From the NCBI GenBank assembly GCA_045656285.1, contig JAZOQY010000057.1, forward strand, positions 1,845 through 65,844: a stretch of 64,000 nucleotides of DNA, written 5' to 3'. Position 1 is the stretch's first letter. Every line of letters starts with the position of its first letter. The notes beneath the pieces are model-generated. The model was not told where the DNA came from, searched no databases, and saw only the letters and a list, made by a program, of their open reading frames with translations. This DNA comes from Kiritimatiellia bacterium. Its GTDB lineage: Bacteria > Verrucomicrobiota > Kiritimatiellia > RFP12 > UBA1067. Made by a program: the position numbers and the translations under genes. Shown here one piece after another: positions 53,915 to 64,000 of this stretch.

Positions 53915-55381
53915 CTAGTTTCCGTTGGCGTGGGGGCACGATGCGCACGGACACTTGTAGCCCTCGCCGTCGATAGACACGTCCTTGCCGGTCCAGCAGT
54001 AGGTACACAGATTCTCGGCGGGAAGTCCGATCGCCTTGACGAGATCATCGATCCGCTGGAACGCGAGCGACGTAAGATTGAGCTTTTCGCGGATGAACTC
54101 GACCATACGAGCGTAGGGCTCGCCATCGGCATCAATATACTTCGAAACGTCCGCGTTCTCGCCCTCATGCCCGCGGATATAACGGCGCGTGACGAGATCG
54201 TACTCGCTCTTTGAACGAGAGAAGTTAAGAAACTTGCAGGGATACAGAAGCGGCGGGCTCGCGATACGCATGTGCGTTTCGAGGCAGCCCTCGGAATAGA
54301 GCTTTATGGCCTGCTTGCCGAGCTGGGTGCCGCGGACGATCGAGTCGTCGCAGAAAACGAGCTTGCGGTTCTTGATGAGCCCGGGAATCGTGATAAGCTT
54401 CATCCTGGCGACATGCTCGCGCTGACGCTGATCGGACGGCATGAACGAGCGGGCCCAGGTAGGAGTGTACTTCACAAAGGGTCTTGCGTACTTGATCCCC
54501 GCCTCGTGCGCATAGCCGAGCGCATGGGAGATTCCGGAATCGGGGATTCCGCACGCGGCGTCGGCATCGGTCGGAGTGCGCTTGGCGAGCGCGCTGCCGC
54601 AGCGGTAGCGCGTCATTTCGATGTTGCGCCCTTCGTACGACGAGGCCGGATAGCCGTAGTACACCCAAAGGAACGAGCAGATCGCCATGCGCTTGCCGGG
54701 CTCGACGAGCGTAATGTCCACTTCGACGGTAAGCTCGACGACTTCACCCGGGCCGATGTCGCGAACATACTCGTAGCCGAGGTTGGCGAGCGCGCAACTC
54801 TCCATAAGCGCTATCATCGCGCCGTCCTTCTTGCCGAGAATCACCGGTGTGCGCCCCCAGCGGTCGCGCATGGCGTAAAGACGGCCGGTCTCGTCGATTA
54901 TGAGGATCGAGCAGCTGCCCTTTATCTTCTGCTGGACATACTTGAGGCCCTCAACGATCGACGACTGGGTCGCGATAAGCGCCGAAACAACTTCGGTCGG
55001 ACCTACCATTCCGCTCGTCGTCGAAAACTGCAGCTGCATCGAATTCTGCTCGAAAAGTTCCTTCTTAAGTTCATCGATATTATCGATGTAGCCTACCGTC
55101 ACGATGGCGAACGCGCCAAGCTTCGAGCACATGACGAGCGGCTGAGGATCGGTATCGGAGATTACGCCGATTCCGACCTTGCCCGAAAACTTCGGGATGT
55201 CATTCTCGAATTTGCTGCGGAACGGCGAATTCTGAATGTTGTGAATCGAGCGCTGAAAGCCCGATTCGTTCAAAAGCGCCATTCCGCCGCGGTGGGTTCC
55301 GAGATGTGAATGGTAATCCGTTCCGTAAAAGAGGTCAAGAACGCAATCGTCCTTGGAAATTACACCGCAGAACCCGCCCAT
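53915..55381 (-). CDS. purF: amidophosphoribosyltransferase-like class II glutamine amidotransferase
   Basis: N-terminal MGGFCGV (Ntn Cys) and a PRTase loop VFCDDSIVRGTQ. Has an extra Cys-rich C-terminal tail. Confidence 0.75.
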   Translation of the reverse strand: MGGFCGVISKDDCVLDLFYGTDYHSHLGTHRGGMALLNESGFQRSIHNIQNSPFRSKFENDIPKFSGKVGIGVISDTDPQPLVMCSKLGAFAIVTVGYIDNIDELKKELFEQNSMQLQFSTTSGMVGPTEVVSALIATQSSIVEGLKYVQQKIKGSCSILIIDETGRLYAMRDRWGRTPVILGKKDGAMIALMESCALANLGYEYVRDIGPGEVVELTVEVDITLVEPGKRMAICSFLWVYYGYPASSYEGRNIEMTRYRCGSALAKRTPTDADAACGIPDSGISHALGYAHEAGIKYARPFVKYTPTWARSFMPSDQRQREHVARMKLITIPGLIKNRKLVFCDDSIVRGTQLGKQAIKLYSEGCLETHMRIASPPLLYPCKFLNFSRSKSEYDLVTRRYIRGHEGENADVSKYIDADGEPYARMVEFIREKLNLTSLAFQRIDDLVKAIGLPAENLCTYCWTGKDVSIDGEGYKCPCASCPHANGN

Positions 55382-55395
55382 TTTTATAGCCTTTT

Positions 55396-55472
55396 TGGTG
55401 CGACTGACTGGGATCGAACCAGCAACCTTCGGCTTCGGAGGCCAACGCTCTATCCAATTGAGCTACAGTCGC
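55396..55472 (-). tRNA. tRNA-Arg (anticodon CCG), CCA encoded
   Basis: The reverse complement folds by hand as a cloverleaf:
- acceptor GCGACTG / CAGTCGC
- D arm GCTC / GAGC
- anticodon stem TTGGC / GCCGA with loop CTCCGAA
- T arm GCTGG-TTCGATC-CCAGT
- 3' ACCA. Confidence 0.93.
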
Positions 55473-55480
55473 GTATGTTG

Positions 55481-57064
55481 TCAGAATTCAAGCGCGTCGT
55501 ACATCATCGCGAGGAACTCGCCGTAGGTCATGCGCGTCTGCTTCATGGAATCGCGTTCGCGGACCGTGAACGTGCCGTCCTCGACGGACTGGGCGTCGAC
55601 GGTGATGCACCAGGGCGTTCCCGCCTCGTCCTGACGGCGATAGCGGCGGCCGATGGCGCCAGAGACGTCCCACATGACGTTGACCTTCTTCTGAAGCTTC
55701 ATGAAGATCTCGCGGGCAAGCTTGTCCTGGGCCTCGTCCTTCTTGATGAGCGGGAAGATGGCGACCTTGATGGGCGCAACCTTCGGGCTGAAGTGAAGGA
55801 CGGTGCGGATATCTTCTTTACCCTTCTCGTCAACGAGCTTCTCTTCCTCATAGGCCTCGCACAAAAGAGCGAGCATAAGGCGGTCGACGCCGGCGGAAGG
55901 CTCGATAACGTGGGGAACGTACTTACCGTCAAAAAGATTAAGGCAGAACTTCTCGGCGGCAACGGGATCCTTGCCGCGGGCGACCCAATCGGCCTGAACC
56001 TTCTCGATGAACGCCTTGCGGGCGGCCTCGTCCATCTTCTTGGCGGCCTGCTTCAGAGGATCGTCGAAGACCATCTGGGACTCGCCCGAATGCTTCTGGT
56101 GCTGCGAGAGGTCGAAATCGCTTCGCGCGGCGATGCCTTCGAGCTCCTGACGGCCGAAGGGGAAGTCGTATTCGATATCGACGCAGGCGCGCGCATAATG
56201 GGCGAGTTCGTCGGGCTTCTGCCAATATTCGACAAAGCGCTCGGTGGGAAGACCGACGGCGTTCAGGAACTTCTTGCGCTGCTCGACCCAGTACTTGTGC
56301 CAGACCTCCCAGCCCCAGTCGTCCTGAACGGGACCGTTGAGATCGGGATTATCGGCGAGAGTTACGACATGACCGTGAAGAATCTCAACCGCCTCATCGG
56401 GGCGGATGAAGAACTCGAGCTCCATCTGCTCGAACTCGCGGCTGCGGAACGTGTAGTTGCGCGGCGTGACTTCATTGCGGAAGCTCTTGCCCATCTGGGC
56501 GATACCGTAGGGAACGGCCTTGCGCGAAGTCGAAGTGACGTTCTGGAACTGGGCGAAAATCGCCTGAGCCGTCTCGGGACGCAGATACGCGACGTTCGAG
56601 GGATCCTCGATAGGGCCGACGATCGTCTTAAACATCAGATTGAAGGGCTTGGGCTCCGTAAGCTCGCCGCCGCAGTAGGGACAGAAGAAGTCGCTGCCGG
56701 CGATCTTGGGCTGAGGCTTCTTTTTCTGATCCTCGTAGATATCCTTGATCTGGTCGGCGCGCATGAGCTTTTTGCAGTCCTTGCACATCGTCATGGGATC
56801 GGCGAACGTATCAAGATGGCCCGACGCCTTCCAGATTTTCGGGTGCATGATGATCGTCGCGTCGAGACCGGCGACATCCTCGCGGCCACGGACGGTAAAC
56901 TGCCACCAGGCCTGCTTAACATTGTTCTTAAGCTCGCAGCCGAGCGGACCATAATCCCAAAAACCGGGCATTCCGCCGTAGATTTCGGACGAATGATAAA
57001 TAAAGCCGCGACGCTTGCAAAGAGCGCTGAGCGGATCGAGAGACGATTTGTTTTCTTCTGCCAT
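55481..57064 (-). CDS. glyQS: glycine--tRNA ligase (dimeric GlyQS type)
   Basis: Start MAEENKSSLD at 57064. RGFIYHSSEIYGGMPGFWDYGPLG and YLRPETAQ motifs. Confidence 0.92.
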   Translation of the reverse strand: MAEENKSSLDPLSALCKRRGFIYHSSEIYGGMPGFWDYGPLGCELKNNVKQAWWQFTVRGREDVAGLDATIIMHPKIWKASGHLDTFADPMTMCKDCKKLMRADQIKDIYEDQKKKPQPKIAGSDFFCPYCGGELTEPKPFNLMFKTIVGPIEDPSNVAYLRPETAQAIFAQFQNVTSTSRKAVPYGIAQMGKSFRNEVTPRNYTFRSREFEQMELEFFIRPDEAVEILHGHVVTLADNPDLNGPVQDDWGWEVWHKYWVEQRKKFLNAVGLPTERFVEYWQKPDELAHYARACVDIEYDFPFGRQELEGIAARSDFDLSQHQKHSGESQMVFDDPLKQAAKKMDEAARKAFIEKVQADWVARGKDPVAAEKFCLNLFDGKYVPHVIEPSAGVDRLMLALLCEAYEEEKLVDEKGKEDIRTVLHFSPKVAPIKVAIFPLIKKDEAQDKLAREIFMKLQKKVNVMWDVSGAIGRRYRRQDEAGTPWCITVDAQSVEDGTFTVRERDSMKQTRMTYGEFLAMMYDALEF

Positions 57065-57074
57065 AATGCGTGAT

Positions 57075-57126: not shown

Positions 57127-59961
<2,835 letters not shown>

Positions 59962-59972
59962 TTATTTATTCT

Positions 59973-60001
59973 ATTATATCATTAAGAAACCCTCATGGCT
60001 A
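59973..60001 (-). promoter_or_regulatory. promoter TAGCCA-17-TGATATAAT for lacZ; the -35 is the terminal unit of CTAG block 1
   Basis: Minus strand: TAGCCA (60001-59996), 17-nt spacer, TATAAT (59978-59973) preceded by TGA. 26 nt to the ATG at 59946. Confidence 0.5.
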
Positions 60002-60335
60002 GTGGTAGAGAGGAACTAGATAGGCTAGAGTGTCTAGATGGGCTAGAGCCCTAGATTTCTAGAAATGCTAGACTTACTAGATGGACTAGAAGTTCTAGAT
60101 AATCTAGATAGTCGTTAGTCGCTAGTCGCTCTAGCCCCTCTAACCAATCTAGCCCGTCTAGTCTAGCCCCTCTAGCCCATCTAGCCTATCTAGGCTCCCC
60201 CTCGCTCCTAGCCCATCTAGCGCCTCTAGCCCATCTAGGCTCCCCCTCGCTCCTAGCTAATCTAGCGCCTCTAGCCAATCTAGCCTAGCCCCTAACTCCT
60301 AGTCCCTAGCCCCTCTCCCCCTAGCCTCGCCTTCA
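59997..60335. repeat. CTAG-dense block 1: two opposed arrays of a 9-bp unit (GGCTAGAn / nTCTAGCCC) around a TAGTCGY heptamer hinge
   Basis: I read 32 CTAG in about 325 bp, mostly spaced 9 bp apart. In the left arm CTAG is followed by A. In the right arm it is preceded by T and followed by C. A perfect palindrome ATTTCTAGAAAT lies at 60055-60066. Confidence 0.9.
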
Positions 60336-60972
60336 GCGCGGCGATCTCGCGCTTAAGCGAGGCGTTTTCGGCTTTCAGCGCGGCGATTTCTTCGTTTTGG
60401 GTCTTGCGCCGCCCTAAGCGCGCGGCGGTCATCCGCTCTCGAATACCGCCGTTTTCAGTAAAATCGGTTTCTTTGTTTTTAAGATGAGTGGCTATCATCT
60501 TATCAACCATATGACAAAGTGTATTGGCGCAATTAGCGAGCTCTTCGTCGGTCCACTTCTCGAAAAAAGGCTCATATTCTTCAAGCTTATTGCGCTGACG
60601 GCAAAACTTCAAAAGCCCGTCGTAACGCGGATGCTTTTTATCCCAGAGAACGAGCGAGCGCGAGCGAATATAATCAAGATAATCCTCTTTAAGTTCTTTA
60701 AGGCTCGCGCGGGCGACATTAAGAAGTTTAAGTTCCATTTCGGTCGAAGTAACGCCGTCAGCGCAGCCTTCAACGATGTTCTGCTTACCGCTACGCGCAG
60801 CCTGAATCATCTGATCGACGGTACGATCGCCATGACGAGGCAAAAAGCGCTTACAGAAAACATAAGTCATCTGATAAAGAACAACAGTCTTCTGATAGAA
60901 GAAGAGCTTCTCCCAGTTAGTCTGATCTCTAAGGATTTTAACCGGCTCTTTAGTAGGCTCATGTGGTTTCAT
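60292..60972 (-). CDS. four-helix-bundle protein (23S rRNA-IVS / Avd-like family) with suffix domain and C-terminal coiled coil
   Basis: NWEKLFFYQKTVVLYQMTYVFCKRF...DQMIQAARSGKQNIVEGC...LLNVARASLKELKEDYLDYI matches my memory of four-helix-bundle plus suffix-domain proteins. The C-terminus carries EEIAALKAENASLKREIAALKARL heptads. The last ~12 codons and the stop lie inside block 1. Confidence 0.7.
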   Translation of the reverse strand: MKPHEPTKEPVKILRDQTNWEKLFFYQKTVVLYQMTYVFCKRFLPRHGDRTVDQMIQAARSGKQNIVEGCADGVTSTEMELKLLNVARASLKELKEDYLDYIRSRSLVLWDKKHPRYDGLLKFCRQRNKLEEYEPFFEKWTDEELANCANTLCHMVDKMIATHLKNKETDFTENGGIRERMTAARLGRRKTQNEEIAALKAENASLKREIAALKARLGGEGLGTRS

Positions 60973-60981
60973 AGCAGTAAC

Positions 60982-61010
60982 ATTATAGCACTAAGCAAAG
61001 CCTCTGGCTA
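60982..61010 (-). promoter_or_regulatory. promoter TAGCCA-17-TGCTATAAT for the four-helix-bundle gene; the -35 is the terminal unit of CTAG block 2
   Basis: Minus strand: TAGCCA (61010-61005), 17-nt spacer, TATAAT (60987-60982) preceded by TGC. Only 9 nt to the ATG at 60972. Confidence 0.5.
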
Positions 61011-61320
61011 GAGAAAATCTAGAGAGTCGCTAGATGGGCTAGAGGGTCTAGATGAGCTAGAGTAGCTAGAGGGTCTAGAGCTCTAGATTTCTAGAAACGC
61101 TAGATAGGCTAGAGGTTCTAGACAATCTAGATAGTCGCTAGTCGTTAGCGGTTAGTCGTTAGTCTAGACTATCTAGCCCGTCTAGTCTAGCCCATCTAGC
61201 GCCTCTAGTTAATCTAGCCTAGCCCTTCTAGCCAATCTAGCCCCTCTAGCCCATCTAGTCTAGCGCTTCTAGCCTATCTAGCCCGTCTAGGCTCCCCCTC
61301 GCCTCTAGCCCCCGCCCTCG
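61006..61320. repeat. CTAG-dense block 2, homologous to block 1 (same arm/hinge/arm layout)
   Basis: I read 32 CTAG in about 300 bp, again phased at 9 bp. It shares long stretches with block 1: ctagatttctagaaa(t/c)gctaga, atctagatagtcg, atctagcccgtctagtctagccc, ctaggctccccctcgc. Confidence 0.9.
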
Positions 61321-61325
61321 CAACT

Positions 61326-61351
61326 AAAAAAGGCCCGGGTTGCCCCGAGCC
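61326..61351 (-). terminator. Rho-independent terminator after the surface-protein gene
   Basis: Minus-strand RNA forms GGCUCGGG-GCAA-CCCGGGCC followed by UUUUUU, about 30 nt after the stop at 61381. A T-run also follows on the plus strand. Confidence 0.75.
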
Positions 61352-61380
61352 TTTTAGTTCATCTAACCGCAATTCTGCGA

Positions 61381-64000
61381 TTATTCAGCGGACGTCGGCT
61401 GGCTCGCAGCTATCGGAGCGAAATCGACGAGAACGCGATAGAACGCTGCATCACCGATCGCAGGAGCGTTAAGCCCTGTCGTTACCGTAGCTTCGTCCGT
61501 ATCAACCTTATCGACAGCCGCTGCCGAGCGAACCGCGTAGTAAAGGCCAGGAAGCTCAGTCTCGAGCGCGACCGTTACATTGCCGTTCTCATCGAAGCTA
61601 ATGGCAGTAATCTCAGGCGTGACAACCGCTGGATTAAGCGCGACAGTTACCGTATACTTTCTTGTCGACTCATTAAGTGTAGCCGTCTTGGTGAAGTATG
61701 TAGCGTATGTCGCAGCATCAACGTCGGTTACACCCTCCGGAATAAGGATTTCAACCTTAGCCGCAGCCGCAGCCGCATCAGTAGCCGAAACCTCAATCGA
61801 ACCACTCGGCTCAATCGCCGGCTTCTCGACTACGGTGTAGAAGCCGTCAACAGGGCCTGTAATCTCATATCCTTCGGCTACGAACTTATCATTAGGCTTA
61901 GTTACATATTGGCCGCCAGTCAAAAGAAGAGAGCCTGTTGTTGTGCCGCCTGTTAAAGTTTGTTCTTCAACACAAATGTTTGAAACACTGATAGTTGCGC
62001 CATCATAAAACTCAAAGCCAAACCAGGCAGTAGAACTCTTAATTGTACCGCCCAAAAATTCAGCCCTAGCACCTCCCGCAACAGCGATTACAGCCGCGGA
62101 CTCACTCCCATTGTAGTCACCAGACTTCTGAAACACGCCATCGAGAACTTTAACCGCACCAGCCTTAACATTTAACAACCTATAGGTAGAAGCTTTATTG
62201 TGCACTACCGTATATTCTCCACCATCAATCTCAACATATGCACCATTATGCATACGAATACCATGATAATGCGTAGTGAGATTTACATTTACCAATTTAA
62301 GACTTATATTCTTAACAAGAATAGCTCCTTTATTACCTTCTGAGGCCACTGGAGTTTCGCAATAAATATTACCATTTTCAATAATGAAATCTGCTGAATT
62401 TTCATTTGCGAAATAAGCTAAAACACCACCATTAAGCGTCTTGCCGCCAAGGTCAATCGTGCCATTGAAGCCAGCAGGAATGGTGATATTCTCTGTCGTA
62501 TCCTTAATAAGCGTAACCTCAACACCAGCCGTTGTGCCCGCAGCCGTAAGAGCTTCCTGAAGCGTCTCATACTCCGTCTCGCCAATCTTAGCGACATTAT
62601 TCGAGACAGGGATTAGAGCTACAGTCCAGTAGCCATCTTCGCCTTCAGTAGCGGTATAGCCATCAGCGCACCATGTTGTTACATTATCATCTGTATTAAC
62701 AGCGGCAGGATTGAAGTCCTTGAACGTACCACCCTTGACAACAAAAGTGCCGGGTTCATCATTGCGGCTGTTCAATGTCCAACGAGGCGTCTGGCAAATG
62801 AACGTACCGCCGTTGATTTCGACAGAGCCACCATTTCTAACATAAATAAGGTCGAAGTGGGCTCCGTCTTCTTCGGACGTAGCACCTACGTTCGTATAAG
62901 TACCGCCATTGATAGTAACCTTACCACCATCTTTAGCCCAGACAGCCATGCACCAGTCATTCAAACCGAACGCATTAACCGTACCTTCGCCTTCGAGGGT
63001 GAGGTCGCCGCCAGCGACAACATAGAACACACCGTTACCTTCTGTATCATTGGTAGCAGCAATTGTCTTCCCGCCAAGGTTAACCGTCACCTTCTTGTTA
63101 ACGGTAATCGGGCCATCCGTAACAATATCAGCGATTACGGTAACAGTAGCACCAGCATTTGCAGCATTAACAGCAGCCTGAAGCGTCTGATACTTCGTTT
63201 CGCCAACCTGAGCCACAGGAGTTGCCGCGGTTACATCAGGTGTTGTGATTTCAGCACCGTTTTCACCAGAGTTGACCGTATAATCCTTAGAGGTCGAACC
63301 GTCAGCAAAAACCTTACCATCATCAGCCTTAAGAGTGAGTGTCACATCCGTGTTAGGATCAACAGCGATGGTGCCAGCTTCAACCACATTGCCATTTGCA
63401 TCATACCACTTAGTATTCGCAGGCGCCGCAGGAATCGTCACATTGACCTTCGCCACAGCGAGCTTGATGGTGTTGCCATCAACGACGTACTTGAGACCAG
63501 TAGGAGCGGTCGGCAAGGATGGCACGATGTCTGCGGCATTGTTGCAAGCGATGACCGTTTCGCCAGCTTCATCAGCGTGGGTGATGGTCAATGCACCAGC
63601 AACAGTAACATTGCCATTAACCGTCACCGGTCCCGCGAGGGTCGCGCCATCAGCGAGGGTAAATGTATTGACTCCTGAAATCGTACCTGAACCAGAAAGT
63701 GTGGACGTTTTGATTACAACAGGCTTTCGACCTTGACCACTTGGAACTCCATTAACCGTGCCATTAACTTCAAGGGCATTAAGTGTAATATCGTACTGAT
63801 TGCCCCAAGTTTTCAAGGTCAATGTATTTCCAGCAGCAACAATCAAGGTGCCCGTGAAACGGGAAAGGCCCGATGTAAAACCGGAATCACCAGTATTGCC
63901 AATCATTGCATTGGCATTAATCACAATCTTACCGGCGCCTGCGAATCCGCGATACAACTCTCCCGAGGATTGAATTTCGAGTTCGCCATTTACAGTAATG
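61381..64000 (-). CDS. large beta-helix / autotransporter-associated-repeat surface protein; its 5' end runs off the window
   Basis: The frame stays open to base 64000 (the M at 63957 in the track is a TTG). Gly/Thr/Asn/Val-rich beta-strand repeats. Two similar modules: VGETKYQTLQAAVNAANAGATVTVIADI and IGETEYETLQEALTAAGTTAGVEVTLIKDT. Confidence 0.7.
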   Translation of the reverse strand, partial: ITVNGELEIQSSGELYRGFAGAGKIVINANAMIGNTGDSGFTSGLSRFTGTLIVAAGNTLTLKTWGNQYDITLNALEVNGTVNGVPSGQGRKPVVIKTSTLSGSGTISGVNTFTLADGATLAGPVTVNGNVTVAGALTITHADEAGETVIACNNAADIVPSLPTAPTGLKYVVDGNTIKLAVAKVNVTIPAAPANTKWYDANGNVVEAGTIAVDPNTDVTLTLKADDGKVFADGSTSKDYTVNSGENGAEITTPDVTAATPVAQVGETKYQTLQAAVNAANAGATVTVIADIVTDGPITVNKKVTVNLGGKTIAATNDTEGNGVFYVVAGGDLTLEGEGTVNAFGLNDWCMAVWAKDGGKVTINGGTYTNVGATSEEDGAHFDLIYVRNGGSVEINGGTFICQTPRWTLNSRNDEPGTFVVKGGTFKDFNPAAVNTDDNVTTWCADGYTATEGEDGYWTVALIPVSNNVAKIGETEYETLQEALTAAGTTAGVEVTLIKDTTENITIPAGFNGTIDLGGKTLNGGVLAYFANENSADFIIENGNIYCETPVASEGNKGAILVKNISLKLVNVNLTTHYHGIRMHNGAYVEIDGGEYTVVHNKASTYRLLNVKAGAVKVLDGVFQKSGDYNGSESAAVIAVAGGARAEFLGGTIKSSTAWFGFEFYDGATISVSNICVEEQTLTGGTTTGSLLLTGGQYVTKPNDKFVAEGYEITGPVDGFYTVVEKPAIEPSGSIEVSATDAAAAAAKVEILIPEGVTDVDAATYATYFTKTATLNESTRKYTVTVALNPAVVTPEITAISFDENGNVTVALETELPGLYYAVRSAAAVDKVDTDEATVTTGLNAPAIGDAAFYRVLVDFAPIAASQPTSAE

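Follow-up and report, generated by a model that had tools for sequence, protein, structure and literature searches.

The gene at 60292..60972 (minus strand) of a 64,000-nucleotide stretch of a Kiritimatiellia genome (contig JAZOQY010000057.1; the whole stretch is called the window here) encodes a four-helix-bundle protein with a suffix domain, 226 amino acids long including an array-encoded tail, and lies between two blocks of phased CTAG repeats. We tentatively propose, at somewhat less than an even chance, that gene and arrays form a self-contained, horizontally moving cassette, in which arrays at promoter and leader positions would act as the cognate binding sites of the dimeric protein. 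This proposal, drawn from sequence comparison, is supported by the co-occurrence of gene and arrays, the precision of their positions, the clade-specific repeat cores, the tracking of the protein by the motif, and co-mobility. Further support comes from a leucine zipper that follows a basic helix, members with a zinc ribbon, a promoter-like module fused to the last CTAG unit, and third arrays at some loci. We also count in its favor that Avd, a protein of the same fold family, binds nucleic acid. The proposal and the alternatives weighed below are not mutually exclusive. Throughout, L-numbers denote the loci examined and P-numbers denote proteins.

Block 2, upstream of the gene (61008..61311), and block 1, downstream of it (59996..60324), contain 32 CTAG each. 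On the plus strand, block 2 runs from CTAGA-type 9-bp units (61008-61134) through a TAGTCG-type center (61135-61163) to TCTAGCC-type units (61164-61311). Block 1 has the same architecture and orientation and covers the last 10 codons of the gene as well as its stop. With GGCTAGAnn units, a short TAGTCG center, and complementary nnTCTAGCC units, each block is therefore an imperfect palindrome of ~300 bp, folding into a single long hairpin in the case of block 2 (z = -10.4) and into a hairpin in that of block 1 (z = -6.4). The two blocks are 78-83% alike in the same orientation (direct-repeat families D2 and D4), and their inner arms are 71-96% complementary (I1, I5, I7, and I19). As the original prediction had claimed, the four-helix-bundle gene is the sole cargo, with nothing else encoded between the blocks. 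Its description of long inverted-repeat DNA fits the palindromic window blocks but does not extend to the family, since this structure is specific to the Kiritimatiellae blocks and most other loci carry simple direct arrays.

The phasing is confined to these blocks. The pattern CTAG-N5-CTAG-N5-CTAG occurs 27 times, only at 60016-60283 and 61030-61290, and not once in 100 shuffles. Of 75 CTAG in the window, 64 fall within 59999-60324 and 61008-61308; outside both blocks, only 11 are found in ~63 kb, and CTAG is therefore strongly avoided in this genome. No further phased CTAG array was found elsewhere in the 64-kb window.

A promoter-like module, TAGCCA-17 nt-TG-TATAAT (60982..61010, minus strand), precedes the four-helix-bundle gene. 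The last CTAG unit of block 2 provides its -35 hexamer, and its -10 element ends 10 nt before the ATG. An identical module at the end of block 1 (59973..60001, minus strand) precedes the beta-galactosidase gene (ATG at 59946). As both blocks end in the same module, block 1 appears to supply the beta-galactosidase promoter. At the other end of the cassette, which is flanked there by a surface-protein gene, a terminator-like G+C-rich hairpin with a T run (61322..61360, minus strand) lies 3' of that gene. The hairpin is kept with the cassette at other loci, as seen from homology to L001, L131, L140, and L141 (window ~59973-61397).

The window protein is a member of TIGR04258 and TIGR02436 and belongs to the S23p/Avd family by fold, which upholds the earlier assignment to the four-helix-bundle proteins of 23S-IVS (intervening sequence)/Avd type with a suffix domain. 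More specifically, TIGR04258 (four helix bundle suffix domain) matches residues 142-190 over the entire model (1-49) and scores 52.9 bits, above its cut-off of 40, and TIGR02436 (four helix bundle protein) matches residues 26-96 with 36.7 bits against a cut-off of 24. Of the three family models named for this check, only PF05635 (23S_rRNA_IVP) narrowly missed, with 31.7 bits under a gathering score of 33.8 despite E = 1.9e-7; close homologs of the protein carry a precomputed PF05635 annotation. An AlphaFold2 model, based on an alignment of 36 diverse relatives, is confident (predicted local distance difference test, pLDDT, 92.9) and all-helical. Helices span residues 24-43, 50-72, and 77-104, followed by two short ones within 117-137 and by the 'suffix' helix at 142-174; the bundle comprises residues ~21-174. 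In the PDB, Foldseek matches the bundle best to 2GSC and 2RLD of the S23p family (probability 1.00, target template-modeling score 0.77-0.87), and 2GSC is found by a sequence profile search as well (E = 0.001). At 50% identity and E <= 1e-3, the family falls into 2,600 clusters. A profile search for more diverse homologs returned the same Kiritimatiellae clade and added nothing.

After a GG turn, the modeled chain continues as a single 45-residue helix (177-221), which holds a basic stretch and a leucine zipper (residues 177-217, window 60322-60444, minus strand). The helix opens with the family-invariant basic stretch GGIRERMTAARLGRRKTQ, and the zipper heptads carry I/L/N/L/I/L/L at the a/d positions. 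Throughout the family alignment, one 'a' position keeps its Asn, which by coiled-coil rules marks a parallel dimeric zipper. In some members (P0202, P0234, and P0263; alignment A2, columns ~320-420), a topoisomerase-type C4 zinc ribbon replaces the zipper. The heptad-repeat tail noted earlier thus stands as a continuous zipper helix, except for the last 9 residues (GGEGLGTRS, 218-226), which are not part of the protein proper because the open reading frame runs into block 1. Correspondingly, the 70 closest homologs are constant up to ...ALKARL and then diverge into at least 35 different tails. A long open reading frame antisense to the gene (60484-61011, plus strand) is probably a shadow frame and not a gene.

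To relate gene and arrays beyond the window, 80 metagenome loci encoding diverse relatives, 45-77% identical, were fetched and scored irrespective of motif (autocorrelation >= 0.67 in 45 bp, lags of 7-12). Passing arrays have periods of 8-10, apart from one with period 7. An array of 8-10-bp period lies at the gene in 62 of the 80 relatives (78%), compared with 5 of 405 control segments (1.2%) taken from the same contigs at least 1 kb from the gene. Arrays stand upstream in 26 of 76 cases, downstream in 51 of 77, and on both sides in 15. At least four phased CTAG accompany the gene in 38 of the 80, while ~4 kb of flank contains 0-3 CTAG. The association, which had been suggested for CTAG arrays, is strong and broader than proposed.

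The arrangement is kept across phyla, namely in Kiritimatiellae metagenome-assembled genomes, Prevotella nigrescens, and Prevotellamassilia timonensis. The complete genome of the cultured carrier P. nigrescens FDAARGOS_1486 (L244, NZ_CP082843.1 260483-261172) encodes WP_004367454.1, 55% identical to the window protein, with four CTAG units after the stop of its gene. Prevotellamassilia timonensis (L071), likewise cultured, has a family gene with a short CTAG array after the stop. These distributions bear on the explanation that the arrays are general host intergenic elements, whose adjacency to the gene is incidental or due to a shared preference for intergenic gaps. Solo CTAG arrays do fill intercistronic gaps among diverse Bacteroidales housekeeping genes, in line with this explanation. 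However, two results effectively exclude it, namely the contrast between family loci and control segments and the tracking of protein clade by the motif. Against it also stand the cross-phylum conservation described above and the lack of any other array in the 64-kb window. We consider it very improbable.

Placement and motif of the arrays are precise. In many cases, the downstream array opens right at the stop codon, and upstream arrays end at a median of ~25 nt before the ATG. Periods are mostly 9 bp, with 10 bp for CCTAGG units, or 8 bp. The CTAG-containing cores comprise TCTAGA, ACTAGT, CCTAGG (10-bp period), and GCTAGA. Clades without CTAG have phased arrays of other cores at the same positions, including CTATAG, TCCGGA, ACGGA, CCAATTAGA, GGCTAATGA, CTCAGAnnn, CGAGG/CGAAG, and, in L107, CCTTAAGG (CTTAAG-type). 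Array class tracks the protein tree: among 48 members less than 85% identical to one another, the nearest neighbor has the same class in 23, while 4.4 would be expected and none of 2000 permutations gave more than 14. The Bacteroidetes -7 box (TAnnTTTG) lies no more than 34 nt before the upstream array in six cases and between array and ATG in four, and most Bacteroidales arrays therefore belong to leader or intercistronic RNA. In the Kiritimatiellae window, the upstream array lies just upstream of the -35 element and overlaps it. Two loci (L218 1-95 and L173 60-132) have an additional, third array that matches those at the gene in type; it lies ~2.3 kb upstream, directly before another gene.

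Two side observations concern array surroundings. The stretch between the arrays of L218 contains a lipoprotein gene and a PIN toxin pair. In L216 (3136-3330) and L217 (3050-3446; P0147 and P0151), the GGCTAATGA-type downstream array is in frame with the next lipoprotein gene and gives the lipoprotein signal peptide a repeated ATG and hydrophobic tripeptides, and gene callers fuse both proteins. A coding function of the arrays in general was rejected because 8- and 10-bp periods occur and read-through tails vary freely.

In the mechanism we propose, a parallel leucine zipper at the C-terminus would hold two protein copies together as a dimer. The repeats would be contacted by the invariant basic helix that precedes this zipper (GGI[RK]ERMxxAR...) and by a conserved polar face of the bundle (DRTVDQMxQAARSGKQNIVEG), at one short, mostly palindromic core per unit. 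The 8-10-nt spacing would let neighboring dimers touch, so that the array may be coated cooperatively. The upstream array would place such a coat over the -35 element in Kiritimatiellae and, in Bacteroidales, over the stretch that separates the ATG from the -7 box or the preceding gene, while the downstream array would place it before the next gene. From these positions, the coat would set expression of the cassette and may shield or modulate neighboring host genes. This would allow the cassette to reside inside operons, for example those of type I restriction-modification systems.

The arrays could instead be secondary-structure elements that bind no protein specifically, either as IVS-like stems or ladder hairpins in the transcript or as DNA cruciforms, and would then process, terminate, or insulate the mRNA of the inserted gene within host operons. 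RNase III stems do so for 23S rRNA intervening sequences with genes of the same fold family. Because most cores are palindromes of 4-8 nt, every array can pair within itself as well as with the partner array. In addition to the long hairpins of the window blocks, ladders of 6-bp helices separated by 3x3 loops are predicted for Bacteroidales arrays (-14 to -65 kcal/mol, with z-scores of -3 to -7 in 11 of 12 tested), and non-palindromic units tend to form inverted arms or to be inverted between upstream and downstream arrays. At most loci, the arrays lie within the transcribed leader or an intercistronic gap. Fragmentary gut metatranscriptome contigs contain relatives 90-95% identical to the window gene.

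For strand preference, no consistent signal emerged. Of 11 Kiritimatiellae blocks, 10 fold more stably on the sense strand, but these blocks are homologous copies and not independent tests, and over 84 independent arrays no asymmetry between sense and antisense RNA stability was found (38 vs 45, p = 0.25). Furthermore, several arrays hardly fold (-0.1 to -5 kcal/mol), the L146 array folds worse than its own shuffles (z = +2.2), and permuting units within arms causes no consistent loss of stability, so specific pairing partners are not maintained. A plain inverted repeat would suffice for a structural role, which leaves the strict 8-10-nt phasing of cores with free spacers unexplained. We regard an explanation by structure without specific protein binding as unlikely.

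The proposal of a binding-site cassette includes its movement, which can be followed among the close relatives of the window protein, found in Kiritimatiellae metagenome-assembled genomes from gut and rumen samples. Genes at least 85% identical to the window gene occur in four genomic contexts: between a surface protein and beta-galactosidase (window), between a surface protein and an AMP-binding enzyme (L001, L131, L140, L141, and L236), between an FGE-sulfatase and DUF4838 (L224), and in a mobile-element-like setting with a Prim-Pol/AAA_25 gene (L003 and L230). The homology between the window and the second context is limited to the intergenic cassette and spans all of it, with the hairpin at one end and the second promoter module at the other (window ~59973-61397). 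The downstream block in that context is present with 24-28 CTAG (L131, L140, and L236) or collapsed to two units (L001), and L224 has merely 6-7 units per side, the upstream array being a direct copy of the downstream one. It follows that arrays move together with the gene and that their length is easily altered. Across the family, the same protein clade and array type is seen in unrelated flanks, and most nearest-neighbor pairs share no flanks. L196 and L197 have a common upstream neighbor (84% amino acid identity over part) yet belong to different clades (58% identity), with TCCGGA and CCTAGG arrays, respectively.

In the fourth context, the homolog is 89% identical and has no flanking arrays, and four phased CTAG lie inside the N-terminal coding part (L003 4001-8699 and L230 1501-3732). 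Its surroundings consist of two small opposite-strand genes, an 880-aa or 337-aa protein of unknown type directly downstream, a 193-aa protein, and the Prim-Pol/AAA_25 gene; PADLOC gave no match for this setting. An in-frame stop interrupts the family gene of L168 (1812-2513), which is probably a pseudogene.

This pattern of movement also suits a scheme in which the arrays are substrates or by-products of recombination. Campbell-type integration of a circle, made up of the gene and one array, at a chromosomal array would yield a direct copy on either side. The solo arrays would be what remains after excision, as scars or landing pads, and the protein might assist or be mere cargo. The flanking arrays are indeed direct copies, both for the window blocks and for the matching arrays of L224, the downstream block is present or collapsed at one locus, and solo arrays are common. 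One gene-plus-array type in unrelated contexts, and the shared upstream neighbor of L196 and L197 despite differing clades and array types, fit as well. Against it, no recombinase is consistently nearby, an IS110 transposase being seen once in 64 upstream neighbors, and 9-bp units with variable spacers offer poor homology for RecA. Solo arrays kept at orthologous sites with their phasing look like selection, not scars. Moreover, no empty site or pair differing in presence of the gene was found among the loci compared: shared flanks were orthologous gene-bearing loci or non-collinear beyond the gene. At the window locus, contigs from DNA sequencing runs join many different flanks to the block sequence and give no clean empty site, and the window beta-galactosidase matches no record exactly, with the nearest relatives (94% and 85%) in non-syntenic contexts. 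Recombination as the reason for the arrays appears improbable to us.

The solo arrays were collected by a scan in the opposite direction, from array to gene, with a pattern of four CTAG at 9-bp spacing and one genome per species. At least 120 loci matched, overwhelmingly from gut and rumen Bacteroidales, with Victivallales and Kiritimatiellae in addition. Among the matches listed (132 arrays), 73 begin at a gene's 3' end and 22 fall within long open reading frames. At four loci, a family gene directly abuts the array, with arrays on both sides of the gene in three of them (L068, L085, and L125), the fourth being Prevotellamassilia timonensis L071. The typical solo array fills the gap between two co-directional genes, with diverse housekeeping genes of Bacteroidales on its flanks. 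On the mRNA-sense strand, its unit reads tCTAGAaaa(t), with A > T in 27 arrays vs 10. Orthologous solo arrays in different species keep the phasing and change the spacers, as in L022/L100 and in L107/L047, the latter between two methylmalonyl-CoA mutase genes. Individual solo arrays (L011-L130) consist of 4-12 tCTAGa units at 9-bp spacing, for example L016 4382-4448, L022 804-852, L100 4521-4587, L107 2358-2406, and L047 1773-1803, in genomes otherwise nearly devoid of CTAG.

Several observations weigh against the arrays being cognate sites of the protein. At 18 of the 80 family loci, no strong array is present, and among the matches listed, ~95% of CTAG arrays have no adjoining family gene. 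L107 contains a family gene with CTTAAG-type arrays and, at a distance of 2.4 kb, a solo CTAG array. The basic helix was rejected as specificity determinant, as its motif is invariant across array classes; specificity, if real, therefore lies elsewhere in the protein, and co-inheritance alone could explain the agreement of motif and clade. Furthermore, the solved S23p and Avd bundles are pentamers, a poor fit to a dimeric zipper, and some arrays have non-palindromic units, which are not the expected preference of a symmetric dimer.

The genomic neighborhood shows where the cassettes reside. For the 80 family loci, 64 upstream and 70 downstream neighbors were counted. The upstream neighbors include Methylase_S (9), N6_Mtase (4), and Eco57I (4), and the downstream neighbors include HSDR_N (10), Methylase_S (4), SWI2_SNF2 (4), and ResIII (2). 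Roughly a quarter of the family genes therefore sit inside type I restriction-modification operons, inserted between hsdM and hsdS or between hsdS and hsdR (L151, L154, L159, L164, L186, L200, and others). In L159, the order is hsdM-TAATG-gene-array-hsdS, with the gene start overlapping the hsdM stop. Nine loci represent one conserved Prevotella site, between genes for thiamin pyrophosphokinase and a PnuC-type transporter. An origin as a defense system or from phage was rejected, with no match in PADLOC or PHROGs and none in 50,697 phage records; among 2.9 million viral contigs, one distant match was found.

Within the window, the genes of 44-64 kb are housekeeping or unassigned. The upstream neighbor of the cassette (61381-63957, minus strand) encodes a large repetitive surface-type protein of 858 aa up to the window edge, without a Pfam match, and related large proteins precede the cassette at other Kiritimatiellae loci. 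A long open reading frame antisense to the glycyl-tRNA synthetase gene (55310-57073, plus strand) is probably a shadow frame as well.

We compared the window system with those of related fold or layout. With the S23p proteins of 23S rRNA intervening sequences (PF05635, TIGR02436; 2GSC and 2RLD), it shares the fold and the signature helix (..AARS.KQNI.EG..), as well as the character of a small, guest-like gene in host transcription units, framed by sequences able to pair; the flanks are complementary and stem-capable to the 71-96% given above. In contrast, the gene is not inserted in a 23S rRNA helix. As the original prediction had stated, it lies outside rRNA, and an Rfam scan of 56-64 kb found no rRNA and no other family. 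The protein has an extra 35-residue insert, the suffix helix, and the leucine-zipper helix, and its flanks are phased 8-10-bp arrays with a conserved core instead of simple inverted repeats.

Avd is the basic nucleic-acid-binding accessory protein of diversity-generating retroelements. No reverse transcriptase was found within 20 kb of the window gene (genes of 44-64 kb), in agreement with the earlier observation, nor among the top neighbor families of the 80 loci. A search of 59900-61400 for a template/variable repeat pair returned only array-derived repeats. Avd has been placed in this fold family (PMC10053308). In contrast to the window protein, it has no zipper.

The layout of the arrays is closer to that of partition modules. 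ParR-parC, ParG-parH with its tetramer boxes, and the omega-heptads of pSM19035 combine small dimeric DNA-binding proteins with iterated sites beside their own gene; the arrays are coated cooperatively by ribbon-helix-helix folds that work with a partition ATPase on plasmids. Common to these systems and the window are 7-11-bp units with a conserved core, direct or inverted, at the promoter of the binder, the coating being a prediction here. The iterated sites at the gene's own promoter thus have a counterpart, while the ribbon-helix-helix fold and the ATPase do not: the window protein is a helical bundle with a zipper, it has no ATPase partner (ParA was seen once only among the 64 upstream neighbors), it is chromosomal, and its arrays also lie 3' of the gene.

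Similarly, a basic helix continuous with a parallel zipper, an Asn at 'a', and palindromic target-like motifs resemble eukaryotic bZIP proteins. The window protein differs by lacking N-x7-R, by a spacing from the AA pair to the first 'a' that is one residue different, and by having its helix on a large bundle. Neither bZIP_1 nor bZIP_2 gave a Pfam match, and residues 188-218 match only sub-threshold coiled-coil families (DivIC, HALZ, and Cnn_1N). The window system is therefore not an rRNA intervening sequence, a component of a diversity-generating retroelement, a bZIP family member, or a partition module. The nearest analog found is the intergenic TAACTGA direct-repeat sets of Beggiatoaceae, proposed as a regulatory network (PMC4679880), which are likewise phased short direct repeats in intergenic or leader positions of many genes. 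They are heptamers with another motif, and no linked four-helix-bundle gene was described (PMC4679880). In the literature searched, we found no description of phased arrays flanking genes of this family or of phased CTAG arrays in Bacteroidales.

A further reading, which we hold to be decidedly unlikely as a joint claim, is that TIGR04258 genes and their arrays constitute a new class of autonomous cassette. The protein would recognize the phased repeats at the ends of the cassette and use them to integrate, excise, or spread, and the cassette would move between array-bearing intergenic sites, alone or with a host recombination function. The solo arrays of housekeeping operons would then be landing pads or footprints. 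If true, this would be a mobile element without a recognizable transposase or integrase, and a first function would be assigned to the fold family of Avd and the rRNA-IVS proteins.

PF05635 and TIGR02436 proteins are very common and, to our knowledge, have no known function or ligand outside Avd. The comparison has exposed apparently undescribed phased CTAG arrays between Bacteroidales housekeeping cistrons in CTAG-avoiding genomes, a frequent guest gene within type I restriction-modification operons, and a possible bacterial use of the basic-helix-plus-zipper design. For the TIGR04258 subfamily, it provides a sequence-defined candidate partner, the adjoining phased array, whose motif changes with the protein clade, and a question of annotation thereby becomes directly testable by experiment.

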